Assembly: GCA_044892505.1 (NCBI GenBank)
Contig: CM097884.1
Location: forward strand, 40,176,001-40,240,000
Length of the DNA: 64,000 nt
Reading direction: 5' to 3'
DNA from: Schmidtea nova
Lineage: Eukaryota
Part shown: positions 2,578-38,951 of the stretch, one piece after another
Layout: every line of letters begins with the position of its first letter
Position numbering within the stretch: the stretch's first letter is position 1
Translations under genes and position numbers: made by a program
The notes under the pieces: model-generated
Seen by the model: the letters and a program-made list of their open reading frames with translations, nothing else
Database searches by the model: none
Told to the model about the DNA's origin: nothing

Positions 2578-3896
2578 TTTGATATACCGGAAACCACACC
2601 AAGGTATTCAGATTTTTGGTGTGGTTGCCGATTCATCAATTTTATTTTTGTTCCCTGGCTGATTAATTTACATAAATTTACAAAAAAATATGAAGGTACT
2701 TTAGTTTTGTCGGATAACAGGGAAAGTAGGATGCCGGGTCGAATCAAAGCTCTATCGAAACCATCGGGTAATCTCCCAACGAGGATCTCATAAGATTGAA
2801 TAACCACGTAAAAACGATACACACATGGATTTGATAGTACAGTACATACGCTAACTACATTCACTTTCGGATCTTGATAGGACATCAACTGACAATAAAA
2901 TCGTAATTTTCTTAAGATTAATAAGTTCATCATATAAGAACCTTCAAAAATGCATATTGTACAGACAATGAATACAAACAATCCGAAAATAATGTCGATG
3001 TAATAATGTTGGACGATCATTGTCAAAGAACTATAGAGAGTAGCATTCAACATTAAAGCCATACCGGTGAACGGCATTTGGCCTTCCGACTTAAAACATC
3101 TACTAGAAGAATCACTTTTAAAAGGTTCGAGCAATTCCCGGGCACTTAAACTCAATCTGCCATAACTATTCACTGAAACCGGATAACGGGGGCCTTTAAA
3201 GTCACTCAAGCACATTTTTGGAGTCAAAATAGGCAAGTTATCCACCAAGAACTCGATCCTTATTTCCCACGGGAGTTGATTAAATATCAATTTTAAACGG
3301 AGAGATATATTCTGTACACATATTTCGATCTTTATAAATTTCTCTCTCTCGGTAACAAATTCAATGTTATCACTAAGATTGACATAAAAGTAGAGCACAA
3401 TAACAACTTTGGCATAGCATTGTTTATTAAAAATATTTAGTTTTAAAGTTTTAGATGGTTCCATAAATCCCTTCATTTCTAAGGCGACTATTTCTGGGAT
3501 TTCAGGCAGAATAATCACTGGCACGTTAGCGATGTAAATCGGCTGATAGCGCTTACCATGCGATTCAACTAATCTGCTGATTCCATGTTTATCATTGATG
3601 CGGAAATATCCCGACATTGATTCCTTGTACTCCGTAGTGATGTATCCATAGGAATTGATAGGCACTTCCAAACATTTACCGTTAGTTGAAACTTTCAATG
3701 GTCTGACATCTAGAAAGAATTTGTAATAAAAGACGTTTATTTTCCACTTCATATTGACAAATTCAACATTATAAGTTGCCGTAGCATTAACAGATTCAAT
3801 ATTCCTGGCGATGTCTGTCAGTCTAATATCTGCTGGCAACAAGTTGTTTGTAAAGATACTGTGGATGAATTCCAAAATATAAATTAATTTTATCAT
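2514..3896 (-). CDS. 3'-LTR copy of the LTR-encoded ORF, running out into flanking DNA; probably not the expressed copy
   Basis: Same as the first ~440 aa of ORF 7769-10498 except one V/D change; the two diverge at the LTR boundary. Confidence 0.5.
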   Translation of the reverse strand: MIKLIYILEFIHSIFTNNLLPADIRLTDIARNIESVNATATYNVEFVNMKWKINVFYYKFFLDVRPLKVSTNGKCLEVPINSYGYITTEYKESMSGYFRINDKHGISRLVESHGKRYQPIYIANVPVIILPEIPEIVALEMKGFMEPSKTLKLNIFNKQCYAKVVIVLYFYVNLSDNIEFVTEREKFIKIEICVQNISLRLKLIFNQLPWEIRIEFLVDNLPILTPKMCLSDFKGPRYPVSVNSYGRLSLSARELLEPFKSDSSSRCFKSEGQMPFTGMALMLNATLYSSLTMIVQHYYIDIIFGLFVFIVCTICIFEGSYMMNLLILRKLRFYCQLMSYQDPKVNVVSVCTVLSNPCVYRFYVVIQSYEILVGRLPDGFDRALIRPGILLSLLSDKTKVPSYFFVNLCKLISQGTKIKLMNRQPHQKSEYLGVVSGISKRVRNSEVQPMQHFCCLNLLW

Positions 3897-4197
3897 AATA
3901 AAATCGATTAGTAATAAGTTTTAATAAATTTGTTTAAAATATTTATTTTGTATTAATTTGTGCGCGGGTTAACCGCTTAACAATCTCTTTTAAACAATGG
4001 GCAATAAAATATACAAATAATAAAATTTTTACACATTTAATAATTCTTTCGCATAATCCTAAACAATGTACAATAAAATTTACAAATAATAAAATTTTCA
4101 CATGACTAACAACCTTTTTACAACTCCGATTCACACAATTTCGGAGGTACATAAAACACGCATGAACATCTATTTATGGTGTCCAAAGAACATTACA
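2580..4197 (-). repeat. 3' LTR (1618 bp)
   Basis: Direct repeat of 9182-10799. Confidence 0.95.
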
Positions 4198-4200
4198 TTA

Positions 4201-4210
4201 CCCCCCATCC
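4201..4210 (-). promoter_or_regulatory. Polypurine tract
   Basis: GGATGGGGGG 3 nt before the 3' LTR on the minus strand. Confidence 0.7.
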
Positions 4211-4286
4211 AGTAACGCGGAGCGTTTTTCTTAAAAGAAAACAAAAAAAAGATTTTAGAGGTGTTAGTATTGGTGCCCGCTCTAAG

Positions 4287-7200
4287 TTACAAGTCGTTAG
4301 TTCTAGATAGGCGGATTGGTAAGTTTGGGTTTTCGCCGATTCTTTTAGTTCGGTGCCATTCTGCTATACGCACTTTCTTAATTTGTTGTGCCTTGGGTAT
4401 CTTATTCGATGATTTTAGGATGGGTTTCAGAGTATATTTTGAAGTAGGAGTTGATTGAGTTTGCTGATCCAATATAGTTGCCGGGATAAACCATGTGTTA
4501 TCTGGTTGCGATGATTGTGTTGTTCTCTGTATTGGTATTTGTTTCTGGTTAGCTATTGGTTGTAATGTGCTGGGTGATGGGTTTTCGATTTCTAACTGAG
4601 TGGTGGGGTGATTAGTTATGAGGGATGGAGTGATTTCATTTTTGATTGGAAGTAATTTCGGTGGTGATAAAAATTGCTGAGGTAAGCGAACGACGGTCGG
4701 GTTATCCCTCTGCAGATTATGGGTTTGTATGGGGTCTGGAGGATTTGGTGGTGTAAAGTCTTGTGTCTCAGCATGCGATGTGATATTTGTAGGACTGGGG
4801 TCTTCTTCCATATAACCAAAAGCTGGCTTGAGACGGGATAGATTTATAATTGTATCCATTCCATTAATGGAAACTTTTGCAGTGCCGTTATCAAGTATTT
4901 GGAGAAGGGAATACGGTCCTTCGTAGCGTGGTTTTAGGCCGATATCGGCAATTGAGCGGATCCATACATGAGTTGCGCGATCAAAAGATCTTGGAATATA
5001 TGGTTTGTAAGTGTTTGACATTGAAAAATTTGGGTTTGAGTCCAAAGATAGGAAATGGTTTCTTGCATCCGCTAGATTTTCTAAAGTTGGTTCGCCGTTT
5101 AGCTCGACAAGTTCGTTTGGTAACATGACGTTAGTACCGAACAGTAGTTGAGCTGGAGACGAACCTGTTGTTTTTGATGGCGTATTGCGCCATCCTAGTA
5201 GAACAAAAGGTAGGGCCTTTGTCCAGTTCTTTGAAGTAGAAAGTATTCGGAGGGATGTCTTGAGTGTGCGGTGAAACCGCTCGACAGCTCCGTTTGTTTG
5301 TGGGTGGTAGGTACTAGTCCTCAGGTGTTTAATTCCTAGTTGTGTCGAAAGTTGTTTAAAAAGATGGGATTCGAATTGGGGTCCTTGATCGGTAATGAAA
5401 TGTAGAGGAACACCAAATATCGAGATCCAATGTTCTATGATCGCCGATGCTACAATATAAGCAGAAATGGATTTTAAAGGAACAGCGACTGGAAAACGAG
5501 TTTTTCTGTCCAGCATGGTTAATATATGTGTGTAACCGTTGTCTGGAGGAAGAGGTCCAACTAGATCGACATGCACCACTTCAAAACGGTTTCCCGTTGG
5601 AAAGTTATGTAAGGGTGGTCGAGTATGTCGGTGGATTTTGTGTTGTTGGCATCCTAAGCAAGATTCACACCAGTCTTTTACGTCTTGTCTCATACTTGGC
5701 CAAATGACACGAGAACGTAGTAGATTGTATGTTGCAGACGTGCCCGGATGGTGAAGGTTGTGGGTGTGGTTGAAAGCTTCGCGCCTTAACTTTTCTTGCA
5801 AAATTGGGCGGATATTTCCAGATAAGGCGTTGTCGTAGTAGATGCCTTTATCGAAAACCGTTGTATTTTGGAAGAATGACAGGTCTTTTGGGGAAGGTGG
5901 TAGAGACCTGAGAACGTCGTCAGTGAAGATCGGCTCAGTAGTGATCGTTGCAACAAGATTTCGCGATAGATAATCTGCTACAATATTCTGGCGACCTGGG
6001 AGATGGGTGATAGTGAACGCGAATTCTGATAGGTAGCTGATTTGACGTCCCTGTCTTGGTGAAGGGGTCTTCATTTCCATCATGTGAACTAGCGGTTTAT
6101 GGTCCGTCTGAATAGAAAAAGATCTGCCTTCGAGTAAGTAGCGGAAGTGGCGGACTGATTCATAAATCGCTAATAATTCGCGGTCAAACGTGGAATAGCG
6201 TTGTTCTTGTGTGGTTAATTTGCGTGAAAAGAATTCGATTTTCTCTTGACACCCTGTGTTGTTCTGTTCGAGAACTCCAGCAATGCCAATGTTGGACGCA
6301 TCGGTAGTTAAAAATAGGGGTAGATTGTTCTTTATATATGACAAAGATTGTGCTGTCGACATTGCGTCTTTGACGGATTGAAAAGCTCTTTCCAGTTCGT
6401 CATTCCACGGTAGGAGAGAGTGTTTTGGGCCGCTACAGAGAGCGGAAAGAGGTGCGGTGACCTCGGATATCCTTGGAATAAATCGGTGACAGAAATTAAC
6501 AGTTCCTAAGAAGCTGCGCATTTGGGAAACTGTATTTGGTCGTGAAAAATTGCGGATTGTATCTAGGCGTTCTGGAAGTGGTCTTACTCCGGACGTCGAT
6601 ACAAGGTGTCCAAGGAATTTTATTTCCGATTGAAAGAAGGAACATTTGTCCAAGTTAATTTGCAAATTGTTATTGTGCAATAACCTGAACACTTCTTTGA
6701 TATGTTCAAGATGTTCCGTTGCATCTTTGGACCCGATGAGGATGTCATCGATGTATGCCACCATGTATTTCTTGTCTCCTAAAATATTGTCAATGTGGCG
6801 CTGGAACGTTTGAGCTGCGTTTCGGAGACCGAATGGCATGTATTTGTATTCAAACAAGCCAAAAGGGGTGATAACAGCGGTCTTCGGGATGTCTTCTGGT
6901 GCTACCGGGATTTGGTGGTAAGCCTTTTTTAGATCTAGAGTGGAGAAGATTGTAGCTTCAGGTAATCTCGAAAGAACGTCTGATATAAGTGGCATGGGGT
7001 AAGAGTCATGTATAGTGACTTTGTTGAGGCGTCTGTAGTCACCACAGGCGCGGATAGATCCGTCTTTTTTTGTAACCACATGGATGGGTGATGCCCAAGG
7101 GGAATTCGATCGGTGTATAGTACCGGCTTCGAGTAGCTTATTGAATTCTTCCTTGACAAGTGTGAGCTTCTCGGGCGCGAGTGGTCGCATACGTTCTCTG

Positions 7201-7784
7201 TTAGGCATACCGTTATTGGTGACTATGACGTGTAGAAAAGAGGGAGTTTGTTTGTGATTGTTTGATCTCTTTTCGACGTTTGGGAACGTCTTTAGTAATT
7301 GTTGTATATAGCAAGGTGTGGCGGGTAAGACATTGAGGGCGTCGCTACAGAGGTGGTCAAGAACTTGAGCTCTAGGTGTGTGCTGTGAGAGGATTAATTT
7401 GCGTTCTCTGCAATCAGGGAGTAAACCTTCGGCATCAAGAAAATCGGCACCTAAGAGTGGATGAATCACCTCGGCGACTTGGAATGTCCATGAAAAAGTT
7501 TTGGACAGACCAGGAATTTGGAATATTAAGTTTTTTGTTCCAATAGTGGAAAAGTTTTCGCCACTGGCTGTCCGGAAGGACCTTTTTTGATTATTATCAA
7601 TTCCGAACCGATTAGGTAGGAATGAGATGATGGAACCGCTATCGATAACGAAGTGAATGGGGGCATCGACTTCATTAGAGTTCTGGGAATGAGGTACGGC
7701 GGGAACAGAAAAGAGTCCACAGGTTATGGGATCGCCATCAAAAACTGTGGGGGAGTTCGATGGCGTTTTCAGTTTTCCGAAGGC
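4287..7784 (-). CDS. pol: Pol (protease, RT, RNase H, integrase with GPY/F motif, Pro/Thr-rich tail), -1 frame relative to gag
   Basis: The frame is open from 7784, upstream of the track's start at 7469. Motifs: FVIDSG, YIDDIL, TTDAS, H..H/C..C, VHVDLVGP, TDQG, VERFHRTLK, RYEGPY. Confidence 0.93.
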   Translation of the reverse strand, partial: AFGKLKTPSNSPTVFDGDPITCGLFSVPAVPHSQNSNEVDAPIHFVIDSGSIISFLPNRFGIDNNQKRSFRTASGENFSTIGTKNLIFQIPGLSKTFSWTFQVAEVIHPLLGADFLDAEGLLPDCRERKLILSQHTPRAQVLDHLCSDALNVLPATPCYIQQLLKTFPNVEKRSNNHKQTPSFLHVIVTNNGMPNRERMRPLAPEKLTLVKEEFNKLLEAGTIHRSNSPWASPIHVVTKKDGSIRACGDYRRLNKVTIHDSYPMPLISDVLSRLPEATIFSTLDLKKAYHQIPVAPEDIPKTAVITPFGLFEYKYMPFGLRNAAQTFQRHIDNILGDKKYMVAYIDDILIGSKDATEHLEHIKEVFRLLHNNNLQINLDKCSFFQSEIKFLGHLVSTSGVRPLPERLDTIRNFSRPNTVSQMRSFLGTVNFCHRFIPRISEVTAPLSALCSGPKHSLLPWNDELERAFQSVKDAMSTAQSLSYIKNNLPLFLTTDASNIGIAGVLEQNNTGCQEKIEFFSRKLTTQEQRYSTFDRELLAIYESVRHFRYLLEGRSFSIQTDHKPLVHMMEMKTPSPRQGRQISYLSEFAFTITHLPGRQNIVADYLSRNLVATITTEPIFTDDVLRSLPPSPKDLSFFQNTTVFDKGIYYDNALSGNIRPILQEKLRREAFNHTHNLHHPGTSATYNLLRSRVIWPSMRQDVKDWCESCLGCQQHKIHRHTRPPLHNFPTGNRFEVVHVDLVGPLPPDNGYTHILTMLDRKTRFPVAVPLKSISAYIVASAIIEHWISIFGVPLHFITDQGPQFESHLFKQLSTQLGIKHLRTSTYHPQTNGAVERFHRTLKTSLRILSTSKNWTKALPFVLLGWRNTPSKTTGSSPAQLLFGTNVMLPNELVELNGEPTLENLADARNHFLSLDSNPNFSMSNTYKPYIPRSFDRATHVWIRSIADIGLKPRYEGPYSLLQILDNGTAKVSINGMDTIINLSRLKPAFGYMEEDPSPTNITSHAETQDFTPPNPPDPIQTHNLQRDNPTVVRLPQQFLSPPKLLPIKNEITPSLITNHPTTQLEIENPSPSTLQPIANQKQIPIQRTTQSSQPDNTWFIPATILDQQTQSTPTSKYTLKPILKSSNKIPKAQQIKKVRIAEWHRTKRIGENPNLPIRLSRTNDL
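7717..7778 (-). promoter_or_regulatory. -1 ribosomal frameshift signal (G_GAA_AAC plus predicted H-type pseudoknot)
   Basis: Gag/pol overlap is only ~5 codons. After a 6-nt spacer come stem CGCCATCGAA/TTTGATGGCG and loop CCACAG pairing with downstream CTGTGG. Confidence 0.7.
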
Positions 7785-10498
7785 TTATTATACGAATTTT
7801 GATTAACTTTACTGGTATTGTGATTACCAGTATGGAAACGGCAGCCTTCCAAGCATGTTTTGGCCTCGGTCTTAAATATTGCGTGATAGATGCAAAGGTT
7901 GCGAGGCAGGCATGTTGGAAGTCGGTTGTTCCACCTACAACCGACATAGCAATGTTGGGCTTTGTCTCCATACGTCTTATGGTAGGAGCATATGAGCCCT
8001 CGTGCAGATGTGGACCGATGTCGTTTTTGATTGTTGTCACGACTGTCTGTTCGACTTCGACCTCGGGTGTGTAGACTTGCGTCTAAATTGTCCATCCTCG
8101 CTGTTAAAGCAGCTATGGCGCTGACTAGTGCTCCTAATTCGGCGTGTGGGAGGCTTGTTGTTGCGACTACCGGTGATGGAGTAACAGGTGACGTGTTGAT
8201 TTCCACGATCTTGTCGGCAATTTTGGCCAGTTCTTCCAATGTTGTGTTTGGAACAACGGCCAGAATGGACTGTGCTGATGTAGGTAGTGCTTTTAGAAAG
8301 AACCTACGGAGTAGAGCGTCGTCTTTGGTAAGACCAGCCTGGATCCTCTCGAGTTGTTCCTTGGCTCGCTTGAGGAAGGCGCTTGGTCTTTCATTATTGA
8401 GAGGTTGATTTCGGAACCAAGCCTCATATAAATGATCTAATTTTGGTCGGTAGGCGTCTAGCACTGCCGATTTCAGTGAGTTGTAGGGCTCACTTGCCGT
8501 GGCTGCGGTTGCAATGGCGGTGGACAATGTGGTGTAAATAGTGCTTGGAAGCATGGACAAGAGTGCACCAAACTTCTGCCCTTGAGATTGAGTGGGTAGA
8601 AAGGTTGGAGTCACTTCTAGTGCCAGGAACCACGTTTGTGGGGAGCCAACGCCGTCTAGGAAAAACGGTATTGGGGTAATAACTGGTGTTGTTTGTTGTG
8701 TTGGCGGTTGTATGTGACTGATTTCACAGTCTGTGTTAGCCTCATCAGTTTGCATTCCTCCAGTCAAACGGGGAATAATGTCGAAATAGGTGGTGATGAC
8801 TGGGGTATGTGTCGCCGATTGGGACTTCTTGACAAAGAAGTGGCGGTGTGTTTCCTTTGGGACGCCAATTGCTAGGAGCAATGAAGACATTGAGGACAAA
8901 TGTGACTTCGTCGGACACAGAGGTTGCCATCCGGAAGTCTTGTTAGGACACCGGAAGAGGAACTTGTGTGATACTTGTTTCCTCTTAATGTTTAAAAACC
9001 CGGTTGTTCTTATGATGTGGTTTCCATGTACCGTCAATTCAGTTAGTCCCGCCCAGGATTGTAGCGCCTTCATTTGGGAAGGAATAGGAAAAATAATAAA
9101 TGTGGGAATAGAATAAAATAAAGTGTTATTTAGGGTAATATAAATGTTACTGGAGGGAGGGAGTAACTTCTGACACCAATTTGATATACCGGAAACCACA
9201 CCAAGGTATTCAGATTTTTGGTGTGGTTGCCGATTCATCAATTTTATTTTTGTTCCCTGGCTGATTAATTTACATAAATTTACAAAAAAATATGAAGGTA
9301 CTTTAGTTTTGTCGGATAACAGGGAAAGTAGGATGCCGGGTCGAATCAAAGCTCTATCGAAACCATCGGGTAATCTCCCAACGAGGATCTCATAAGATTG
9401 AATATCCACGTAAAAACGATACACACATGGATTTGATAGTACAGTACATACGCTAACTACATTCACTTTCGGATCTTGATAGGACATCAACTGACAATAA
9501 AATCGTAATTTTCTTAAGATTAATAAGTTCATCATATAAGAACCTTCAAAAATGCATATTGTACAGACAATGAATACAAACAATCCGAAAATAATGTCGA
9601 TGTAATAATGTTGGACGATCATTGTCAAAGAACTATAGAGAGTAGCATTCAACATTAAAGCCATACCGGTGAACGGCATTTGGCCTTCCGACTTAAAACA
9701 TCTACTAGAAGAATCACTTTTAAAAGGTTCGAGCAATTCCCGGGCACTTAAACTCAATCTGCCATAACTATTCACTGAAACCGGATAACGGGGGCCTTTA
9801 AAGTCACTCAAGCACATTTTTGGAGTCAAAATAGGCAAGTTATCCACCAAGAACTCGATCCTTATTTCCCACGGGAGTTGATTAAATATCAATTTTAAAC
9901 GGAGAGATATATTCTGTACACATATTTCGATCTTTATAAATTTCTCTCTCTCGGTAACAAATTCAATGTTATCACTAAGATTGACATAAAAGTAGAGCAC
10001 AATAACAACTTTGGCATAGCATTGTTTATTAAAAATATTTAGTTTTAAAGTTTTAGATGGTTCCATAAATCCCTTCATTTCTAAGGCGACTATTTCTGGG
10101 ATTTCAGGCAGAATAATCACTGGCACGTTAGCGATGTAAATCGGCTGATAGCGCTTACCATGCGATTCAACTAATCTGCTGATTCCATGTTTATCATTGA
10201 TGCGGAAATATCCCGACATTGATTCCTTGTACTCCGTAGTGATGTATCCATAGGAATTGATAGGCACTTCCAAACATTTACCGTTAGTTGAAACTTTCAA
10301 TGGTCTGACATCTAGAAAGAATTTGTAATAAAAGACGTTTATTTTCCACTTCATATTGACAAATTCAACATTATAAGTTGCCGTAGCATTAACAGATTCA
10401 ATATTCCTGGCGATGTCTGTCAGTCTAATATCTGCTGGCAACAAGTTGTTTGTAAAGATACTGTGGATGAATTCCAAAATATAAATTAATTTTATCAT
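7769..10498 (-). CDS. gag: 909-aa LTR-ORF / Ubl / Gag fusion; Gag proper starts at Met582 (8755)
   Basis: Uninterrupted ORF crossing the LTR end and the PBS. PRLTGG precedes MQTDE. Gag motifs: PFFLDGVGSPQTWF, RPSAFLKR, FFLKALP, and two CxxHx9Cx3C knuckles. Confidence 0.9.
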   Translation of the reverse strand: MIKLIYILEFIHSIFTNNLLPADIRLTDIARNIESVNATATYNVEFVNMKWKINVFYYKFFLDVRPLKVSTNGKCLEVPINSYGYITTEYKESMSGYFRINDKHGISRLVESHGKRYQPIYIANVPVIILPEIPEIVALEMKGFMEPSKTLKLNIFNKQCYAKVVIVLYFYVNLSDNIEFVTEREKFIKIEICVQNISLRLKLIFNQLPWEIRIEFLVDNLPILTPKMCLSDFKGPRYPVSVNSYGRLSLSARELLEPFKSDSSSRCFKSEGQMPFTGMALMLNATLYSSLTMIVQHYYIDIIFGLFVFIVCTICIFEGSYMMNLLILRKLRFYCQLMSYQDPKVNVVSVCTVLSNPCVYRFYVDIQSYEILVGRLPDGFDRALIRPGILLSLLSDKTKVPSYFFVNLCKLISQGTKIKLMNRQPHQKSEYLGVVSGISNWCQKLLPPSSNIYITLNNTLFYSIPTFIIFPIPSQMKALQSWAGLTELTVHGNHIIRTTGFLNIKRKQVSHKFLFRCPNKTSGWQPLCPTKSHLSSMSSLLLAIGVPKETHRHFFVKKSQSATHTPVITTYFDIIPRLTGGMQTDEANTDCEISHIQPPTQQTTPVITPIPFFLDGVGSPQTWFLALEVTPTFLPTQSQGQKFGALLSMLPSTIYTTLSTAIATAATASEPYNSLKSAVLDAYRPKLDHLYEAWFRNQPLNNERPSAFLKRAKEQLERIQAGLTKDDALLRRFFLKALPTSAQSILAVVPNTTLEELAKIADKIVEINTSPVTPSPVVATTSLPHAELGALVSAIAALTARMDNLDASLHTRGRSRTDSRDNNQKRHRSTSARGLICSYHKTYGDKAQHCYVGCRWNNRLPTCLPRNLCIYHAIFKTEAKTCLEGCRFHTGNHNTSKVNQNSYNKPSEN
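9166..9178 (-). promoter_or_regulatory. Primer-binding site, tRNA-Leu type
   Basis: TGGTGTCAGAAGT, 3 nt after the 5' LTR end. Confidence 0.85.
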
Positions 10499-10799
10499 AA
10501 TAAAATCGATTAGTAATAAGTTTTAATAAATTTGTTTAAAATATTTATTTTGTATTAATTTGTGCGCGGGTTAACCGCTTAACAATCTCTTTTAAACAAT
10601 GGGCAATAAAATATACAAATAATAAAATTTTTACACATTTAATAATTCTTTCGCATAATCCTAAACAATGTACAATAAAATTTACAAATAATAAAATTTT
10701 CACATGACTAACAACCTTTTTACAACTCCGATTCACACAATTTCGGAGGTACATAAAACACGCATGAACATCTATTTATGGTGTCCAAAGAACATTACA
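9182..10799 (-). repeat. 5' LTR (1618 bp), containing ~440 codons of ORF
   Basis: TGTAAT...ATATCA; direct repeat of 2580-4197. Confidence 0.95.
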
Positions 10800-10804
10800 C
10801 GCGT

Positions 10805-11454: not shown

Positions 11455-12048
11455 GCAAGGCAACCCTAACCACACCAATTTTAACCAGAGTTGGTGTATT
11501 GCTCTTTTAAAATTTAAACAAACCATTAAGATTTTACTTTATCCAATTATTTCGCTTTCTACCTTCGCTCCGCTCTACTTTCTAGGGTCGCAATACACAC
11601 ATAAAAAGCATACTGTTTATGTAACCGTGAATTTCCCTACTAGTTCACGTAGGTAATGTACATAACAGCCGATCGCAAGCCAGCAGGTGAGCTCCTTCAC
11701 AAGAACTACTCCTGGCTTGTCGCTTCGTTCGGGTTCTGACTGACAGATAGAAGGTCTCATTCATGCTATTTCCTCACCCAGTCACAGGTCTCTTCTTTAG
11801 AGTGAACTTAATACTCTAACTTTACCTTTCTATTTACTTCAACATGTCACTAAAACTTTTCCCTCAAGATCTATCCTATTCTCTTAAATAGAGTTTCCAA
11901 AATATCCGGTTTTTTAGTATCCGCGAATACCGGTTTTCATTATTCGAAAACCGCGGTTAACCGTTTGGATACGGATATTTTGGAAATAGCTAATTTAAAA
12001 AAGAAAAGATAAAAAAAACTCGAAAAATTGTCAATTTAAGATGAAAAT

Positions 12049-12255: not shown

Positions 12256-13332
12256 TGTTCGGTTCGTATCAGTGGTTTACGACGAACACAGAAATATAAA
12301 TATATATTTGATACTTTAGTTTGATTATCGGACTCCAAACGATAATCCGCTTATTAATTATAAATAAATTATATGTTTTAGGTTGTGTGTAAAGAAAAAC
12401 AAGATCTAATTCCTTTTAATAATATGTATTGTGAAATATGTAAATCAATGTACAATATAATAAAATAGCTGCTAAGCAAAAGTTAGAGAATCGGTTATAC
12501 AAACCGTCCTAAGATGTTTAAGAACGAAAGCTGGACCTAAAAGGCTCAACAGCTCCGACTAAATGAAAGGACACAAGATGAGGGGTTTCCCTGTAGTTTA
12601 ACCGCGATAGTGACAACCCAGAATTGGTTGTCACTGTGACTTAATAATTTTCCCTTCTAATAATTTATTATTTAACGATTTTGCTGAAGGGGAAAAATAG
12701 TAATACAACTATTTCCCCGTGATCGATTTATAAGATTTAAAACAAAACTAGGAAAATTACCAGCTACTAAAGATTATTCCAATTTAGGGAAATTATCACG
12801 AACGAAATTCAAGCTAAGCTTCTTGTAATACTTCTGCCGTAAAATTAATTTCTCCAATTCACAAATTTGTCAAACTAAAATTCTAAAATTCACTTCGGTA
12901 AAATTTATGTTCTGTAAACACTTATGTTTCTCTCTCTACTTCTGTCAAAATTACTTTCTGTTTCAACTGATTTTGCAATCAGTTTATATACAAATTATTT
13001 TCTCTCATGTAGGTCTAGACGACCACCTATTACTAACTACGTGTAGGTCGAAATTGACCTTACAAAATATTACTTTTAAAGTAATTTATTATTACTATAT
13101 ATATCTTATTATTACTATTTAAATTTCTTATGTATTTATTTATTACTATATTTATTATATATTATTTAATTATTACTGTATTTAATCTATATTTATTTAT
13201 AGTAATTATTTATTTATTTTCTATTTATCTATCTATTTATAGTATTTTTTTTAATTACTATTTATATTTATTTATTTACTTATAATATTTAATTACAAAA
13301 ACCCCGAGATCCCTTGATCTCGAACCCTAACA
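12256..13332 (-). repeat. 3' LTR (1077 bp)
   Basis: Direct repeat of 26138-27214. Confidence 0.96.
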
Positions 13333-13334
13333 TG

Positions 13335-13344
13335 TCTTCCCCCT
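13335..13344 (-). promoter_or_regulatory. Polypurine tract
   Basis: AGGGGGAAGA 2 nt before the 3' LTR. Confidence 0.75.
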
Positions 13345-13627
13345 AACAAGATTTTCGTCCCGAAAATTAAAGCGGAAAAGACAAGAAGGTTCAGCAGCCA
13401 AAAATAAAAAAAATAAAACAACAACACATGCATATATACATAGAATGCACTTGGTCAAAATGAGTCTCATAAAACACATAATACATAATTAATGTTGATC
13501 ACAATCGATATCAAATAATAATTGTCTGTAAGCGTTGGATTGTTGATCACATAGCCGAAATGCTAATTGTTTGATTGATAGTTGTCATAGCTTATAGCTA
13601 GACCTTGAATTGAACGTAGCAGAAATG

Positions 13628-15592
13628 CTAGTTATCCTTCGCGAATAGGTTTTGAGCTGCTCTCTTGCGAATATGCGCTTGCTCGTTCTTGATGCGATCT
13701 TCCACTATATCTGGTCTATAGCTGACCACCAATGTTTCGCGTGTTTCGACTTCCTTATATACCAAAGACGAAATCACGTATGATTTTCCGTTGGCCTCCA
13801 ATACGCCATAGTAAGGGAAGTTTGAAACTGATGATTGGTGTACCGGTTTCCCGTCGTATTCTTTTATCCGAGGTACCCAATTTCTCTCTGGTCGCTGCCA
13901 AAAACTAGGGTCTTCATTGTCCAAATCCTGGGGTATCTTTGCTGAATTTCCCGTTCCAACGAAATCCCCTTCTCTTATAATAATAGGTTCGCCCTTAACC
14001 TCCGGAATCTGTTCCATATCGGGTGGGATGAATGCTGTTTCGATTAAATCTTTGTCTTCCGTCGAGATGGGATTTGGTACTTTCTTTTTGATCTTTAGAT
14101 CTTGTAACCTTACAACAGGTTCTTGACTTTTCTTTGGGGGTGACTTTTCTACTGAAGTCAATTTTTTAAAAGTCTTAGTAACTTTTTCCAAGAGCTTGTT
14201 CTCTTTCTTTGGTGGATTTTCTGGCACGATCTTTGTAATTGTACGGCTGTCTCCGTGTAAAGTTAAACGCATCTCTGTTTGCTCCTCACCCTCGCTTTCG
14301 CAGGTGGCGTAATCGTCTTCATCAGCTAAGGATATAGCTGGAGGGGATAGTGATTCTTCCTCAACTATCTTTTGCAATTTGGTTGATAATGGTTGTTCCT
14401 GGGGTAAGCTCTCAATAGCTTTCCTTTTACTCGTTTCTTGTGGCTGTATTGTATGAACCATTTTGACTTCTGATGTAATCGTCCCACTACGATTACCTGG
14501 GGTAATGTCATCTACCCAAACTTCTCTCAGTTTAAGGTAAATATTACGTGTCGTTTCCACGTCATTTTCCGTTTTCAGATCTGAACGGTTTAGTTCTTCT
14601 TTTTCGAGAATTGACTTTGATAAATACGCGAGTCGATAATGTCCGTTACATTTCTTTAGTTCTCTCGCTTCCAGGCATTTTGCTGCTCCTAGTTCTCTAA
14701 TGCCCAATACTCGTTGAGGGTGTAACTGGACTGCTTCCAAGAAATCGTTGACTTGGAGACCTATTAGAATTTTCCCATCACATAATTTTCTAATACGGTC
14801 TGCGCAATCCTCTCCATCAAATTGTCCGATGATTTCTTTTTCGGTCATACCATGCGCGTGCGATTGGTAATGTTTGACCTGGTTTCTGGGTGTAACCACC
14901 GTGTTTAGTATTAAATCACCACAGTAGTTTGCTATCGAAACAGCCACCAAAGCTGGCTTTAAATAATCTCGCAAAGTTGCGTAATGCGCTGCAACAAATA
15001 TTGACAATCTATCTTCTTGATTGGGGTGCAGATTCATCCGAACAAAGGATTTGAATGATTTGAGATCGTTCTCATTCACATTATAGGTCCAGGCAGGTTC
15101 ATTTTTCCACAATGATTGCACTGCCTTGCTAGGTTCCAAAATCTCTAATACCACAATAGTATTATATCCGTCACATTGGATGGAGATATTCTTTTCTCTG
15201 CCATCTCCGTTACTAATTTCTAGAGTTGATTCTGGTTGAAGTAGGATGGGTCCTGTGGCTCCTGCCATGAAGATTGTAAAGGGTTTATTGATCGCGTGAA
15301 TCAGGAGATGGTGAGTAAATGTTGATCTGTTAAATTCCGCCATGTGTTCAGTCAACCGGGTGTTCTCACGGCTGGTAATTGTGACTATGCACATTTGTCT
15401 CTTAGGCGATCCGAGAAACTTAAAATTGTTTGGGATGCCGGTGCAGTGCCCGTAATACCAATAGCGACGACCTTTCCGTGCTTCTGCGGATATCGCTTTT
15501 TCGATGTTTCGATAAATCAGTTTTTCCTTCTGTACTGTTTGCACATCGATAGTGCTATAACGCTGCTTGTATTGTGACACTTGATGCTTCAT
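13628..15592 (-). CDS. Accessory ORF2 with REX4/ISG20-like DEDDh exonuclease-fold domain (ExoI acidic residues absent); likely from a spliced mRNA
   Basis: ALVAVSIANYCGDLILNTVVTP..VKHY....HGM..KILIG..ENDVETTRNIY resembles REX4 motifs. A strong acceptor TTTTTCTTTCAG lies 2 nt before the ATG at 15592. Confidence 0.75.
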   Translation of the reverse strand: MKHQVSQYKQRYSTIDVQTVQKEKLIYRNIEKAISAEARKGRRYWYYGHCTGIPNNFKFLGSPKRQMCIVTITSRENTRLTEHMAEFNRSTFTHHLLIHAINKPFTIFMAGATGPILLQPESTLEISNGDGREKNISIQCDGYNTIVVLEILEPSKAVQSLWKNEPAWTYNVNENDLKSFKSFVRMNLHPNQEDRLSIFVAAHYATLRDYLKPALVAVSIANYCGDLILNTVVTPRNQVKHYQSHAHGMTEKEIIGQFDGEDCADRIRKLCDGKILIGLQVNDFLEAVQLHPQRVLGIRELGAAKCLEARELKKCNGHYRLAYLSKSILEKEELNRSDLKTENDVETTRNIYLKLREVWVDDITPGNRSGTITSEVKMVHTIQPQETSKRKAIESLPQEQPLSTKLQKIVEEESLSPPAISLADEDDYATCESEGEEQTEMRLTLHGDSRTITKIVPENPPKKENKLLEKVTKTFKKLTSVEKSPPKKSQEPVVRLQDLKIKKKVPNPISTEDKDLIETAFIPPDMEQIPEVKGEPIIIREGDFVGTGNSAKIPQDLDNEDPSFWQRPERNWVPRIKEYDGKPVHQSSVSNFPYYGVLEANGKSYVISSLVYKEVETRETLVVSYRPDIVEDRIKNEQAHIRKRAAQNLFAKDN

Positions 15593-15778
15593 ATCTGAAA
15601 GAAAAATAATTAACGTTAATATCAGATATACTGATAGGCCAATATTGGCTAAAAAGAAATGCATAAATCTCGATTTACGGGATCTACTTATGCTGTAAGT
15701 TAATGCTACTCGGAGCTCAACAAGATTATAGATTTTAATATATATATAAATACAAATATGCGATTTTATCTGTAATTG

Positions 15779-18700
15779 TCATAATCTCGTCATCATAATC
15801 CCATCAACCGACTCAATGGCCTGACTGAAGAATAGTTTCATCCAAACTCCCATTGCTATCAATGTAGTGATCATAGCTAATACTGCTGACGTAATAATCC
15901 ATACCCCAACGGGTAATTTTCCCAAGTGAGTAATGGGGTTTACTTCATTAACTTCACACTGACAACTTTTAATATAGCTTTCTGTTGATACTGTTGGTTT
16001 TACCATTTTCAATCCTTTCAATCTCTGCCATATTGCAGGATGAATGACGTAACTTTCTTTCCGTATCAATGATGTAACCGATTTCATTGTCGTCGATGAT
16101 TGTGGTAATTTCAAAGAGATAACTTCATAAAATACCTCATTCCATTCATCGACTCCTGGCTTTTGTTTATTATTCATATAAGTGATATGAGCTTCCCACT
16201 CCACTGAGCTGTTCCACTTGAGATTTTGTTTCTCAATATCTTCATTTAGCCACAATTCTTGTACTATTTCCTTGTCGGAATGGATTTCTATCTTTACTCT
16301 ATCCACTCCTTGTTTTGGTTGGCTGAAGGTAATCATACCTTGTTGGATATTTATTCTAACTTTCCTTTTGAAATCTGCTGTCTTCAACTTCCATTGTGAC
16401 TTTGAAAAATCTGACCATCGTCCAAACATAAAATGTTGAACAAGTATATCTAACAGATATTCCTTTTCTGCTCGTAAGTCCTTTATGACTTTCACTCTTG
16501 TGTTTGAATCCAATGTAAAATGGAAACAACGTCGTTCGCAAAACGAGAACTTGAATTTTGTATCATTTTCAGCTAATGATATTATCCTAAATTCCTGGAA
16601 AGATCTTCTAAATGCGAGATCTTGAATTTGTACCGCTGTTGGAACAAATGTCTTTACACAGGATATAAGGCAACTTATTATTACCAAAAACGTAACTGAT
16701 TTTGGCACGCCTCTTGATCGTAATGGATATCTGTCTGAGACTGGTTCTGACCCTTTATCCTCCTTTTTCTTAATCGGATCTTTCTCCGTGACCGCAACTT
16801 TCTTGCATCTGTTAGCATGTACCATTATTGGTTCAGCTTTTCTATTTGCTACTAATTGCAAGATTAAATTCGTGTCTGTGGTTCTCAAAACCTCATATGG
16901 TCCTTTGAAGTTTCTCATTAATTTAGGTGATAAGCCCTTTTTATTATAATGGCTTTCCAACATCACCTTGTCTCCAACTAACATGCCATGTCCTTTGGCT
17001 TTCTTATCATGATAATCTTTCGACGCTTCCTGACTGAATTTTATACTAAGACCTGCTTTTGTCCATGCTTCTTGCATTCTTTCTCTCATTTCCATGAGAT
17101 AATCCTCTTGGTCTAAATACTGCGTTGCTTTTGGGAAAAACAACAAGTCTATAGGCATTTTACTTTGCCTTAAATACATGAGATAGAACGGCGTTTGTCC
17201 CGTACCCTCATGAACAGCATTTCTGTATGCGAATAGGCATGATGGAATATGTATATCCCAATCCGTTTGCCCTGAATTTACGTATGATGCTAGCATATTT
17301 GCGAGCGTTCCGTTAAATCTCTCTACCAATCCGTCTGTTTGTGGATGGTATGGAGAGGTATTCAGTTTTAAAATGTCGAAATAATCATTTATTCCTTTTA
17401 GCAGATTACTCATGAAATCTGCTCCTCTATCTGTTAGTAGTTTTGTAGGTACTCCATACCTAAAAACAATTTGCTCTACGAAAATCCTGGCTATCGTATC
17501 GGCCTTGTGATTCGGTATCGGATAAGCCTCCGGCCATTTCGTCAAGTAATCGCAAAATACCAATATGTATTTGTTACCACTATTTGACTCTTTGAATGGC
17601 CCTAAAACATCCATTGCCGTCATTTCCATCGGTGTGGATGGTACTGGCATTGGTTTCATTGGCACATGCGGTTTCTTCCCCGTATTTCTCCTGGTGATAC
17701 AGATCTTACATGTCTGACACCATTCCTGTACGTCTTGTTTGATTGTCGGCCAGAAATATTTCTGCTTCAACCTTGACAATGTTTTCCTGGAAGACAAATG
17801 CCCTCCCAGTGCTCCATCATGATATTGTAACATCAAAGCTTCGCGATATTTCTTAGGGACCATTATGACATTATCCCTTACGTCTACATATTTGACTAAT
17901 CCTTCTTCTAGAATAAATTTGTCTCGATTTTTCTCCCAATATTTATTAAATTCCGTCGGTATGAACTTTGCTTCTAAAGCCTGTCTGATTTGGTTTATCT
18001 CTTCATCCGATTGTTGTGCTGCCATTAAATCCGCGAGTCTGTTTGCTTCTCTTGTAAGTGCGAAGATTGTTCCTTCTAATCTTCCTTCCTTAACGTCTTC
18101 TGCTTCATCACCCTGGTCCATTCGAGAAAATGCATCTGCATTCCCATTTTGGTGTCCTTTTCGGTAATGTATTTCGATGTCGTATGGCTGCAAGATCAAT
18201 GCCCATCTAACCAATTTTGATGTGTCCATAGTATGCTTTGTTAACCACTGTAATGGTCTATGATCCGTATACACAATGATCTTTCGACCCCATAAATATG
18301 TCCTGAATTGGTGTATAGCATACACAATTGCTAATGCTTCTAATTCGATAACTGCGTAATTCATTTCATGTGGTTTTAATCCTCTGCTAGCATACGCTAT
18401 GGCATATTCGTCTCCTAGGTCATCTCTTTGACCTAACACAGCACCAATACCCCGAGTGCTGGCGTCCGTCATGACCAAAAATTGTTTCTCAAAATCTGGA
18501 AACCGTAATATAGGAGGTTCCACGAGCATCCTCTTTAGCATATCAAATGCTTCCTGTTGTTCTTTTCCCCATACAAATTTGACATTTTTGCCCTCTAATT
18601 GTGTCAGAGGAAATGCTATTGCCGAAAAGTTCCTGATGAACTTTCTATAATATCCCACTAAGCCCAAAAACCCTTTTATATGTTTGACTGTCTTTGGCTC

Positions 18701-21700
18701 TGGAAAATTCTTTGCTTTCTCAACATTTGCTGGATCTGGTTTTACTCCATCCTTCGAGATAATGTGACCGACATAGACTACCTCTGATTCGGCCCATTTA
18801 CATTTCGATGGTTTTACCTTAAGATTTGCATTAATTAACCTTTTGAATACGTCCTCTAAATGTTCTAAATGTTTTTCCAAATCTGGAGAAAATACTATGA
18901 TGTCATCTATGTATACCATTGCATGATGAACATCCATTAACATTAGATTCATGGCTCTTTGAAACGTTGCCGGCGCTCCTGTGAGACCAAATGGCATTAC
19001 TGTATATTCGAAGTGTCCAAGGCTTGTAGAAAAAGCCGTAATTGGTATTGTCTCCTCTTTTAACTTGATTTGGTAAAATCCCTTCTGAGCATCCATCACT
19101 GAGAAATATTTTGAATTTCTCATGCGTCCGTAAATGTAATCCAGTAATGGTAATGGGTGACTATCCTTGCAAGTTGCTTCGTTTACCATTCGATAGTCGT
19201 TGCATAGTCGTACCGTTCCATCCTTTTTGGCCACCACTATCATTGGTGACTGGTATGGTGATTTACTATGCCTGATGATGTTATGTTTTAACATCAGTTT
19301 TACCTGCTTATCGACAGGTTCTTCCAAGCTAAACGGAATTCGATACGGTCTCAGTTTTATTGGTTTCGTGTTGTTAAGAACAATTTCATGTTCCAACAAG
19401 TTCGTCTTTCCCAGATCATATTCGTGCTTGGCGAATACTTGATCATATTTTCTTAATAACATGTTGACTTGGATATTCTCTCTTCGTGAAAGAGCTTTGC
19501 TATTTGCCGTTGGCGCATCATAGTACTCGATGTCTGATTCTCTATTTTCTGCCTTTATTGTCAGGACAGATCCTCCATTTGGTAATTGATCCGACTTTGA
19601 TACTCTCCCTACTCTTGTATCTGGGTACAATTTTAATGGTTTTATATCTAAATTGGCTACCCGAATTGGTATTCTGCCATTTTCAACTTTACCAATGCTA
19701 TGCGTAATTGGTAGATTATATTTTGCTGAGAACCTTTCATCTGGTTCGAATACAACTTCTCCTTCCCACTGTTCGCTAGTGGACACGAAACATACTGTTT
19801 CTGCTCTGGGTGGTATTATCATCGTATGGTCGATGAAAACTGTATCATCATTATAAACTTTTCTTTTCTTACCGATTGATCTAACTAACAATCCGGTAGC
19901 ACAGTCAAATACAACTCCTTTTAATCTTCTTAAAAGATCCATTCCTAGTAGACATTCTACTGGACAAGTTCTCATGACTATAATATCATGACGAAATTCT
20001 TGGTCACATAGCTTGATGTTACAAGCTAGAGTACCAATAATATTCAATGATGTGCCTGTAGCACCTGTTAGCGAAACTCTTGAGGTTTCCATTGATTCCA
20101 ATTCTTTTTGATTTAATAGTGTTGCCTCTATGATGGTGCCGTCTGCTCCTGAATCTATCACTGCATTAACTGTGTGTCTGTTTATTTTTATCTTTATCAT
20201 GGGTTTCTTATCCAAGTTCACCCCATTTGCCATCAAAATAGTAGCATGCGTTATCCCGATGGTATTTGCTCTGAATTTCTCTGCTTCATCTTGTTCGGTA
20301 TCACTCAATTTTGGATTATATTCCTTAAATTTAGCTTTTATTGCTTCTAACGACTCGATAGGATACAGTTTCCCTTCATTTTCTAACGATAATGATATGC
20401 TTTTACCAGTCTCTCGAGCATCTTTGTCGAGAATTTGTTGATGTTTAGAAATGTACATTTTGTTTCTTGGAGTGGTTAAAGCATAATTTTGTTTGCCCTC
20501 TCCTGATGTCTTTTGAAACTCTGGCGATTCCCCCTTTGGCGCTGTTGGCAAGCTTCTAAGATATGGTAATTGCATATATCTTGGGCTTCTTTTCAATCTA
20601 GGTGATGCTGTATTGATTGTAAATTTCTGGTCTGCACTATCGTATTCATCTTCTGAAATCATACTTTTGTCGAAAATCTGTTTTGTCGCTTCGTAAGGTG
20701 GTTGATAATCCCGATATTTCATTTTCCTTAACTGATGATTCGGTTTTTTATTGTAGTTTCTTTTTCGACTTCTACTTTGCCTCTGAACTGTATTAAGAGA
20801 GTCTCCATTACCTCCTCCTTCCGAATTGTTATCGTCCCGATAACTTGTATTACCCTCCATTTCGATTCCAATAATCTCGTGTTTTACCAAGCTTCTCTGT
20901 TTGATTGTCTTTATTTCTTTACGATGATGTTTAAACAATGCAAATTCCGCACACATAGGACACAATCCTAGTATCAACTTCCAAGACCATCCACCGATTT
21001 TGAATATACTGTATGTGGAGATTAATTGTGTTATTATTAACTTTAGAATTACGAATATTGCATATATTCCTGAGCAGCCTGCCACGAAAATACCAAAATT
21101 GGTAAACCTTCCCCATATTTTCATCATCACATTTTTAGCTGCTTCTTTATAATGATCTGGACCGAATAATAAATTGTAATCTGGTCTCATTTCGTTTGCT
21201 TGGTAAATTGTTCTTATGATTTCAGTGATACCTCTTTCTCTTACTTGAGGGAATAGCAATGTCTGTCTTGCCTCCTCAATGTCTGCTGAAGTGTAAATTC
21301 CTCCTTGTGATAATTCATCGAGTGATTTAAATTCCATGTTTTCCTCGAGTTTCGTGACTTCCAATGTTTCCACCTTTCTATTAGATGGTTTTCTGTCAGG
21401 TAATGAGATCCATCTATCATTTACCTTGTATAACGGTGATATTGCTGGATTGCAAATTGAAGGTTGAGGCTTTTGTTTTTCATCCAAAAGTCTCCTCGTA
21501 ACTGGCATTACAAATCGTATTTTGTTTTGATATGACACTGGTAATTCTAGAGTACATTCATTATACCGAGTTAATTGTACCTCTATGGGTTGACATTGAT
21601 AGCTGTATATAGCTTCCCCCATAATTCTGCCAAACATTCCATCTTCTAGCAACATAGGTGTCACTAGATCCGGATTCACAATTGATATCGCTAATCGATT

Positions 21701-24700
21701 TCGAACTATTTCGCGATTTAGTTTGCAATCATTGAGTATTACTTCCTGATACATTTCCTGCATTTGTCCTTGCAGATCATGATATAAATAATCTATTTTA
21801 TTATTTATATAGTTCGTGATTTTGATATCCTGGCTGTGAATATTCTTGGCTTTTTGGATGAATGTTTTTGACAAATATAATCCTTTATAGTTGGTCTCAT
21901 ACACCACTTTTCCGCATTTTGTCTTCTTATCTTTTCTGACAAATCTGATTGCATCTTTCTTATCTTCTGATACTAATACTAGAGGTGTGATTTCCTCACT
22001 AATATCCTCTTTTTGCTGTTTGTTGATCCTTTTCAACGTCTTTTCTTTATCCCAAATTCTTTCTCTTTTGGGTAAATCTCGATACTTTGTCCCGTTCAAC
22101 TTATGGAAATTAATTTTCTTTAGTAATGACAATTCGCAATGGTCTAGTATTTGATCGTATAATAATGTAATGACCCCTGTTCTGCAGCTTCCAAATTTCG
22201 CAAGGCACTGAGGGTGTGCCATTAATCTTCCTGATAATACATCGAACGTTCCTTCGTATTCTCTTAATTCGATTGAATAGTCCTCGATATCTACGACAAA
22301 ACTTACCAACTCCGATCCGCGAGTTTTCTTTCTTCCCGTACAGGTACCATCTGATCCGATTGATCCTCCTCGTGTAATGGTTACTCCCAGTGTTTTTCCT
22401 ACTTCCGCGGCGATGGTTACCTCGTTATCGATTCTTAAAGTACCTTTTCGAAAGGCGTCTAGACAATCCTCTGGCAATATGTTGACAGGTCTAGGTATTA
22501 GAGTGGCTGATAGAAAAGCTGTATAGCTGTGTGAACCACAATAATATTCAAACGTTGCTCTTTGGACTCTACATTCTCTTATCTTAGTTCTGAAGAATTC
22601 ACTTTCTTGGTAGACATAGTATTCGACCTTTTCTCCTGTTTGGACCTTTTCTGGATATGCCTCTTTGCACTCAATTGCATCTACGAGCGAATATATCCGA
22701 GCTAACTTTGGATCACTGCAATCAAACGCTGTCATTGTGTTTGTCTGTTTCATTATCCCCATCATTACTAAAAACATTAATATCATATTCGTCATATTCC
22801 CCATTCCTCCATTTTCGAGGTGGTTGTTATTCATAGCCTCTTCCACAAATTCATATCGTGGTTTATGTTTCTCCTCTTCCCAGAAATTATTTTCACTCAT
22901 CCACGTTCCGAGATAATGCTCCGTTATCTCCGTGATCTGGTCTATTTCTCGATTAATAAGCTTCTTCTCATTGCCTGCGCGGGCTAAAGCATCTTGAATC
23001 AACATAGATAATGCTGTCACTATTTTTCCTTTAGATAACCCATCTTGTATGAGTGTCTCTAACATACTCTGTATCTCGTTTTGCGGTACCCCTCTAGGTA
23101 ATCTCCTCATCGTCTTCGCGATTGACTGTGTTACTTTATCCACTTGAATTCCTTTAATCCGAGTAATCTGCCATTCTGGCTTTAATATTCCTATGATCTG
23201 TTTTAATCTCTTCCATGTCAGAGATTTTTCTGGTATATGTACACCTTCGTCTCTCATATCAACATCCCTGGCTATTCCTGACAGAGTTTTCATCTGAACC
23301 TGTTTAATGGTTTCTTGGTTTAATTGCTCCGTTGGTGGAGGTTTCATTTGATCTTTCCTAGGCCTTCCTCGCCTATCTTTCTTTGTCTGCCATGCTGGCC
23401 TGATAGTTTCTACCGCCTGAGAAGTTGAAGCTCCCACGTTAGTTTCCTCATTATTGAGTCTGATTTCCTCTTCTCCGTGATTATCGGCATCGATATCTAC
23501 ATTAAATGGTTGTGTTTCAACATTACCAGTGACCATTTCATCTGGTAACCGTAATGCTGACCATTGAGATTCAGGTGGCTCTACGGGAATGATTGCTACC
23601 GTTGTAGTTTCAAAAGGTAGACATCCCACATCTACTAAATATTCATCATCATCCACTTGTCCTCCATGAATCATAATCAAGAATATACCGGTAGTCTGCC
23701 CAGTATCTATTAAATCCTTTCTCAACGTTATCACTTTGCTAAAACAACGATATAACCTCGTCATGGGTTCTTTTCCCGATATTCGAATGTCTAAAGTTAT
23801 CATGCCTTGTCGATGTGCTTGATGACGTATTGCTGTTCCATTTTTTCTCATTAACATTTTTATTTCTGTTTGAAAAGAACTAGTTTCTTTTACTACAGGT
23901 AGTAATATAGGAATTATATTCTCCAATGATTCTACTGGTATGCGCAATACCAACATCCAGTCTAATATTTCCTTGATTGTTTCTCCATCCCTCGGAGATT
24001 TCTGCAGCTCTATCTTCAGACGTTGCTCTATTTGTTGGACCTCCTCCAACTGTGCAATTTCCATTTGTGTGAGTAGAAACACACTGTCTTGATCCACTAC
24101 TGGGACCGATATTCCTGTCAGTTTCGTTGTGAGTTTCGTTACCCTTCCTGGTAATACACCATTTTGTAGTAGTGTTTCCCCAACTACTAACTTTTCTCCA
24201 TATAAATAAAAATCATATCTATTATGTTTCAATTTCATCATTGTATCTGACAACTTATCTGTTCGACATCTTACATTCATGTCGATGTTAAACTCCTGCT
24301 CCTGAGGAAGTTTTATGTTTAAATGCGAATCCTGAAGATCCCATTCATGCTCCATTGCAGTTCCTATCTTTCGTAGGATTTTATGTATGTCGCTATTATA
24401 CCTTGGATCATCTTCGACCTGAGATATTAATTGTAATATCTTTCCAATTTCACTATTCTTGATATCACCTTGTGATAATTTCTCTAATTCTCTAGTCAGT
24501 CTCTGCTGATACTCATATCTGGAATCCACCAGTTTTAAACATTTTGCTAGGGTATCTGACCCTTTCTTGGCCTTTGTTTCCTTGAACAAAGCCTGGTCGA
24601 ACTCGCTCAGTATGGTACTCATACTGGGTTCGTCATCATTATCAGAATTTGTCTCTGATTCTATTACCTCATGATTCTCGCTGCTGGAATCCATGGGTTC

Positions 24701-26056: not shown

Positions 26057-26116
26057 AACTTTTGTCTTTTTAGGAGCTATTTTGTTTATAACAATATGCC
26101 CACTGATAATAATTGT

Positions 26117-26134
26117 ATCACGTCGGGCTCACCA
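26117..26134 (-). promoter_or_regulatory. Primer-binding site, tRNA-Trp type (18 nt)
   Basis: Plus strand ATCACGTCGGGCTCACCA matches the eukaryotic tRNA-Trp 3' end ATCACGTCGGGGTCACCA at 17/18. Confidence 0.85.
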
Positions 26135-26137
26135 AAA

Positions 26138-33530: not shown

Positions 33531-33585
33531 TTCCTTTTCGCTTTTTTATATATATTTTAATTAGATGGAATATATTATATATATA

Positions 33586-38938: not shown

Positions 38939-38951
38939 ACTACCAATATAA

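Follow-up and report, generated by a model that had tools for sequence, protein, structure and literature searches.

The long terminal repeats (LTRs) of retrotransposons are usually treated as non-coding. In animals, template switching at microsimilarities is a known route of LTR-mediated retroposition (Tan et al. 2016, PMC5131818). The retrocopies described there, Bs1-type chimeras included, are partial, intron-less pieces of host mRNA that come from several parents, are joined at microsimilarities and pass through further cycles of copying. According to the available text of that article they replace part of the internal open reading frames (ORFs) and act as non-autonomous elements, and the phrase 'within the LTR' does not occur in it. 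A Ty3/Gypsy element on the reverse strand of a 64,000-nucleotide stretch of the Schmidtea nova genome (GenBank assembly GCA_044892505.1, contig CM097884.1, positions 40,176,001 to 40,240,000; 'the window', in whose numbering positions are given) resembles these retrocopies in origin, junctions and repeated copying, but its cargo is inside the LTR, gag and pol are intact, the cargo is duplicated to both ends and to solo LTRs, and it is under selection to remain in frame. The LTR frame of this element is probably a mosaic of captured pieces of host mRNA, kept open for the translation of Gag, and Gag is probably freed at the di-glycine of a ubiquitin-like segment (Ubl).

Extended Gag proteins are familiar from other systems: gag of Ty1 begins inside the 5' LTR, and the glyco-Gag of murine leukaemia virus is an N-terminally extended Gag with a transmembrane (TM) segment. 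Both extensions are short and native to the element, unlike the hundreds of codons of swapped host mRNA found here. In cytopathic bovine viral diarrhoea virus (BVDV), the viral protein that follows a ubiquitin insert is released by host hydrolases. As in the window element, the BVDV inserts are mosaics of host mRNA in the polyprotein, with ubiquitin directly before the core protein, NS3 (PMC13517609, available part). However, BVDV is an RNA virus and its insertions are rare dead-end variants, whereas here the strategy is heritable, repeated and placed in retrotransposon LTRs. The giant planarian Gypsy element Burro (GYPSM1) likewise has host-like domains in its polyprotein, including a Ubi2/SUMO-like motif; in the available part of its description (PMC6431247) Gag is N-terminal and the cargo is internal and apparently stable, whereas the cargo of the window element is encoded in the LTR ahead of Gag, is exchanged over time and evolves neutrally. 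The CsRn1 clade of Ty3/Gypsy, so far as the accessible part of its description goes (PMC2582038), shares the CX2HX9CX3C motif of Gag, the order of protease, reverse transcriptase, RNase H and integrase (PR-RT-RH-IN), the overlap of gag and pol in different frames and the absence of env. The window element differs from it by two such CHCC motifs (aa 837 and 869), a target-site duplication (TSD) of 5 bp rather than 4 bp, LTRs that range from 0.26 to 2.8 kb in its family and contain coding cassettes, and a Ubl-like segment before Gag. A literature search by title and abstract, incomplete in coverage, found neither in-LTR capture in the Gag frame nor a ubiquitin-released Gag; the supplements of PMC5131818 may list LTR-located cases.

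The PR-RT-RH-IN order, the LTRs, a primer-binding site (PBS), a polypurine tract and a TSD were all found in the window element, as is characteristic of Ty3/Gypsy; RT, RH and IN were recognized by Pfam, and the protease is presumably marked by a DSG motif. The element appears to resemble the CsRn1 clade by its CHCC motif, though its TSD and, presumably, its PBS differ. We take the PBS to be tRNA-Leu-type and, presumably, not of the tRNA-Trp type of CsRn1; no tRNA was found within the 64-kb window. A stop-free frame spans positions 10522 to 7769 on the reverse strand, and from its first ATG at 10498 it encodes 909 aa, 439 codons of which are within the LTR. It crosses the LTR end and the PBS as ...ISNWCQK (I438 is Ser in 57 of the 66 other LTRs compared). 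A preliminary description of the window had noticed a frame of about 440 codons with this course into Gag, repeated in the 3' LTR, and both observations are borne out, as the two LTRs have the same frame and a single mismatch in 1620 bp. The LTR itself was correctly recognized, but its length is not 1618 bp and its terminus is not CA: it is 1620 bp long and runs TG...AA. Chance is a poor explanation of the open frame, as that description had argued: the probability of 439 open codons, based on composition, is 8e-15, and in 1000 shuffles no open frame exceeded 160 codons, compared to 447 observed. Stops in other copies, named there as the outcome that would speak against a coding LTR, are absent from aa 1-319 in 123 of 125 scored copies (406 candidates in the same genome, which is also the one meant below by own-genome searches). 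Contigs from four sequencing runs of unspecified kind contain the element and variant LTR ends only.

Judged from the sequence, aa 1-323 of the frame derive from a host ADAM gene from which the catalytic and disintegrin parts have been removed. The identity to the host ADAM metalloprotease gene is 80-82% at the amino acid level. An own-genome search with a 33-aa query located three intronless paralogues near G000:C1:19.62-19.67 Mb that lack LTR ends and are of ADAM type, with a Reprolysin match (E 4e-14 to 7e-11), a HEIGH motif and a TM segment; the disintegrin match is weak (E 0.006-0.01) and present in two of the three. The features of an ADAM/reprolysin source gene, namely M12B with HExxH, disintegrin and TM, are found in the host genes of L287 and L288. 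A stretch of 909 host nucleotides, comprising the catalytic site, the disintegrin and the Cys-rich part, has been deleted in frame at a short microhomology, and the catalytic HExxH was lost from the LTR copy with it. The captured stretch begins directly after the AATAAA of the LTR and includes some 27 nt of the 5' untranslated region together with the start codon. Microsimilarity, as judged by eye, is present at the 5', deletion and 3' junctions. Basal LTR copies are 96.8-97.9% identical in nucleotides to one host paralogue, compared to 90% for the window copy, and therefore the direction was from host to LTR. The source gene is intronless, so this cassette has no intron loss to show; intron-gap pattern searches for the host source gave chance matches or one LTR copy only.

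The TM-like segment of the preliminary description is real as a hydropathic feature (Kyte-Doolittle 2.6, aa 299-317), but it is inherited from the captured host ADAM and is not a feature of the leader as such. A PAP2/sphingomyelin-synthase origin of this segment (weak Pfam match, E 0.047) was rejected, as no matching gene was found and the ADAM source accounts for the TM. A viral-glycoprotein origin of the leader was also rejected: the Atlas likeness (0.87, recognition 1580) is below the thresholds of the tool, no Pfam match to env or a fusogen was found, and the source is host ADAM. Public homologue searches detected no relative of the LTR ORF or of the Ubl-Gag part, the PDB sequence search gave no meaningful match, and nothing could be learned from a single-sequence AlphaFold2 (AF2) model of the 909-aa fusion (pLDDT 34). 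The host loci L287 and L288 are of interest in themselves as a tandem cluster of at least three divergent intronless ADAM-type proteases, for which the LTR-fragment query found no public relative. At L289:1832-4069, the frame of an ADAM-cassette LTR continues into a flanking ORF of 746 aa that is Gag-like but different.

The reading frame of the LTR is selected; its protein sequence is not. The comparison covered 109 LTRs from 79 insertions, each aligned to the window copy over at least 1150 bases at 86% identity or higher, and changes present in at least two insertions were taken as shared (inherited), those in one as private. The shared changes comprise 187 nonsynonymous, 72 synonymous and no stop changes (n = 259), against a neutral expectation of 0.69, 0.266 and 0.044, so that omega is about 1.0 and the deficit of stops has a P of 8e-6. 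The private changes are neutral throughout (194 nonsynonymous, 77 synonymous, 12 stops; n = 283). In a control of 26 full elements, the shared omega is 0.21 for pol (39 nonsynonymous, 77 synonymous, 1 stop) and 0.30 for gag. By the pairwise Nei-Gojobori method, which ignores transition bias, deeper pairs have values of 0.57-0.76 and shallow pairs 0.9-3.7, with 0.13-0.55 for pol. All four shared indels of the ORF (-48, -36, +285 and +57) are multiples of three; in the non-coding 5' part, the alignment of which is ambiguous, 12 of 40 are. Furthermore, the spacer from the PBS to M476 varies by whole codons. The preliminary description had considered the ORF to be probably under selection and had proposed dN/dS across copies as a check; the outcome upholds selection on the open frame and not on the protein.

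The ADAM-derived part is only one of several interchangeable cassettes. Subfamilies with interiors 92-98% identical to that of the window element carry different cassettes, and these alternative cassettes are read in the same frame to the LTR end. A sister LTR carries TMEM131 as its cassette (Pfam E 3e-23), which is read in the gag frame. Its host gene could be located exon by exon: 12 host exons are present at 90-97% identity and the 11 introns, for which GT..AG is the best-scoring boundary at 9 of the 11 junctions, are absent. Therefore, a spliced mRNA was captured. Further cassettes match EF-hand (2.7e-5), ankyrin (0.005) and, weakly, TIR (0.049), and others are presumably derived from PPP-phosphatase, C1 and RIIa-like domains. 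One more module has a counterpart in the host, a putative exon that matches it, in the same frame, at 99%. The cassettes begin just downstream of the LTR AATAAA, with junctions at microhomologies. Of the marks of LTR-mediated retroposition, intron loss (in TMEM131) and microsimilarity were thus found, and replacement of internal ORFs was not. Ten older elements were retrieved in full, and in four of them both LTRs are short (259, 267, 433 and 449 bp) and a TSD is present. Because such elements exist, the cassette is dispensable, whether the short-LTR forms are ancestral or deletions. Two independent internal deletions, L018/L043 and L121, have joined the LTR/PBS frame in frame to pol, resulting in a 1411-aa frame in L018.

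Gag proper follows directly after a segment that ends in PRLTGG, the di-glycine of which is kept in 66 of 67 copies. This segment may be a Ubl that a host protease cuts at its di-glycine, which would free Gag from any leader. The Ubl before Gag that had been named in the preliminary description thus stands as a motif, by its C-terminal di-Gly, and not as a domain recognized by a database. A frame with another Ubl-like ending (..CRVLGG) precedes coding sequence at L288:263-838 and possibly represents a third di-Gly-tagged element type. An own-genome search for ubiquitin gave 2605 candidates, of which 150 were scored, and all 20 long-frame matches that were fetched belong to a single BEL/Pao family (L203-L222). 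Where both LTRs are in view, the ORF of this family begins in the LTR and reads through the PBS. It consists of varying HECT, RNA-polymerase and Hsp70 pieces, followed by true ubiquitin (E about 1e-29), a DUF1759 Gag and the Pao enzymes (Peptidase_A17); another piece of the leader is, we presume, calmodulin-like. The shared changes are 135 nonsynonymous to 38 synonymous in the leader, 7 to 12 in ubiquitin and 176 to 134 from Gag onward, and RLRGG is kept in 22 of 23 copies. No other observation supports the proposed release step as strongly, if indirectly, as the occurrence of this layout in an unrelated superfamily with an unambiguous and selected ubiquitin. It is about an even chance that, in this one genome, two unrelated LTR-retrotransposon superfamilies have independently put a ubiquitin or Ubl release tag before Gag, and that this tag has allowed their LTRs to become translated cassettes for exon shuffling whose content keeps changing. 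Pieces of host mRNA would then be captured, joined in frame and spread in thousands of solo LTRs, each with a promoter, while selection acts only on the reading frame.

A hairpin and an AATAAA at LTR positions 217-256 suggest that U3 and R are short and that U5 is 1.3 kb long. The cassette would then be in U5, present once per RNA, ahead of the PBS, and copied to both LTRs. Its capture would occur by template switching of the reverse transcriptase onto co-packaged mRNAs at microhomologies. A second, strong hairpin in U5 (9155-9245, about -29 kcal/mol) ends at the LTR end and includes M421. In three of the four short-LTR elements, M421 is the first AUG to follow the R hairpin; it lies within the LTR, 19 codons from its end, in the gag frame. 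The fourth has no match to the hairpin. Since gag would natively start inside U5, inserts ahead of it would have to be sense and in frame, or else Gag translation and RNA stability would fail in cis. ATG 10498 is the first post-hairpin AUG in most ADAM-type copies, and the first post-hairpin AUG likewise opens the frame in the ankyrin-type and L143/L153-type LTRs. Ribosomes would start at the first AUG of the element RNA and would have to pass through the leader to reach Gag, and only sense in-frame captures would survive, by cis-selection on Gag translation and/or by escape from nonsense-mediated decay. A cut between PRLTGG and M by a deubiquitinase-type host enzyme would give Gag a fixed N-terminus, so that the sequence of the leader no longer matters. 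Should the signal peptide of ADAM have remained functional, Gag would still end up in the cytosol, because the TM is retained. A palindrome like the core of the R hairpin is also present at 11950-11965 of the window, outside both LTR pairs.

Several observations weigh against this account. The candidate Ubl has no match in Pfam, PDB or the Atlas; its AF2 model, in the order strand-helix-strand-strand, is of low confidence (pLDDT 37), a fold search with it was empty, and the similarity to host ubiquitin (z about 2) vanishes without the last six residues. Own-genome searches, which were saturated, located no host sources of aa 324-415. The TMEM131 cassette has a signal-like N-terminus and no TM, which fits poorly with an obligatory cytosolic Gag unless the copies move in trans. 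All LTRs compared came from search hits, and sampling from protein-search hits may favour open frames; nonetheless, the neutral rate of private stops argues against ascertainment as the cause of the stop deficit. Finally, the frame of Gag is not opened by the first AUG everywhere: an upstream ORF (uORF) of 7 codons is common to the PPP-type LTRs, L144/L188-type LTRs carry uORFs, and in several TMEM131 copies a frameshift follows some 27 codons on. The conserved downstream M476 could start Gag independently.

The start codons bear on a different reading, in which the open frame serves solely to protect the RNA, from nonsense-mediated decay or for ribosome clearance, and Gag is made from M421 or M476 by leaky scanning or from an internal or spliced transcript, with no cleavage of a fusion. 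M476 is conserved in nearly all copies, the uORF exceptions agree with this reading, and so do the two gag-less deletion derivatives in which the LTR frame is joined to pol. However, the 36 AUGs of the leader (14 in frame and 22 out of frame) make scanning to M476 unlikely, and M421 is lost in family B. Of 186 LTR ends scored, 38 have GTG in place of M421, and most of these are of TMEM131 and PPP types. The conserved di-Gly before Gag and the selected ubiquitin at the same position in BEL/Pao are left unexplained. We consider this reading unlikely.

The preliminary description had proposed a membrane-anchored leader that is co-translated with Gag. A functional membrane or env-like leader, similar to glyco-Gag, could anchor Gag or act on the host under relaxed or diversifying selection, and the ADAM part does retain a signal-like N-terminus, four N-glycosylation sequons before the TM, and the TM itself. 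The ADAM-cassette subfamily is the youngest and is large (about 400 LTRs), omega exceeds 1 in some shallow pairs, and there is the weak Atlas likeness to viral glycoproteins. Nevertheless, omega is about 1.0 overall and no sub-region is spared, with 115 nonsynonymous and 39 synonymous changes in the ectodomain and 7 and 1 in the TM, those in the TM core all being non-charged. Five other cassette types have no comparable TM (best 19-residue hydropathy 1.15-1.79, compared to 2.61 in the ADAM cassette), some elements have no cassette at all, and the source is a host ADAM rather than a viral fusogen. A leader of this kind is quite improbable, and as a conserved accessory protein it is not supported. 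That the frame is open merely because the captures are recent coding sequence is highly improbable and largely refuted, since, although the family is young (one difference in the LTR pair) and the captured pieces were originally coding, the window cassette has diverged by 10% from the host gene with 96 changes and no stop (71 nonsynonymous, 25 synonymous, omega 1.03, compared to 0.54-0.64 among host paralogues), stops are found among private and not among inherited changes, and inherited indels and inter-module junctions are all in frame.

If captured host mRNA is indeed translated in the LTR frame ahead of a releasable Gag, the LTR becomes a site of gene capture within autonomous elements and offers a clean example, from nature, of selection that acts on a reading frame but not on the protein. 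Each solo LTR would leave behind a promoter and an open chimeric ORF derived from the host. New genes might arise from it, as might small RNAs directed at genes of the host or fragments with a dominant-negative effect, such as a protease-dead ADAM. The convergence on ubiquitin before Gag would provide a concrete, testable reason why captures are tolerated. Many annotated 'paralogues' in such genomes may be LTR cargo, as the number of ubiquitin candidates suggests.

Table 1. Features of the Ty3/Gypsy element, in window coordinates
Feature	Position	Strand	Remarks
Target-site duplication, 5 bp	10800..10804	.	partner 2573-2577
5' LTR	9180..10799	-	1620 bp, ends TG...AA
GCGG-loop-CCGC hairpin	10564..10583	-	conserved; probable start of R
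AATAAA	10544..10549	-	probable poly(A) signal, just upstream of the cassettes
Captured host ADAM 5' part, aa 1-261	9718..10513	-	209/261 identical to L287:4981-7152
Contents of aa 1-261		-	start codon (10498), signal-peptide-like N-terminus, prodomain, beginning of metalloprotease domain
Captured host ADAM juxtamembrane and TM, aa 262-323	9530..9717	-	TM about 9545-9607; 51/62 identical
Older captured-module remnants, aa 324-415	9255..9529	-	nested sharing with other cassette types
U5 core	9180..9254	-	common to all LTR types; contains the end hairpin and an in-frame ATG, M421 (9236-9238)
Primer-binding site	9164..9179	-	in-frame translation WCQK
Candidate ubiquitin-like domain, aa about 510-581	8756..8971	-	ends PRLTGG
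Gag proper, aa 582-909	7769..8755	-	DUF7041 and two CX2HX9CX3C motifs
pol (PR-RT-RH-IN)	4287..7784	-	different frame, overlaps gag end
Polypurine tract	4198..4213	-	adjoins 3' LTR
3' LTR	2578..4197	-	same cassette as 5' LTR; single mismatch at 2803

Other mobile elements also lie in the window. A second intact Gypsy element, with identical LTRs of 1077 bp, occupies positions 12256-27214. In its ORF of 3449 aa, gag and pol are separated by a Monjiviricetes fusion-glycoprotein domain (E 5e-89); an upstream ORF of 716 aa has no Pfam match. An env between gag and pol has been described for Burro. At 35515-48154, long inverted repeats (512 nt at 99%) flank DNA-polymerase-like and capsid-like frames, in an element that we take to be Maverick/Polinton-like. 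Another, at 33572-34904, has inverted repeats of 48 nt and a split transposase, and is presumably Tc1/mariner-like.

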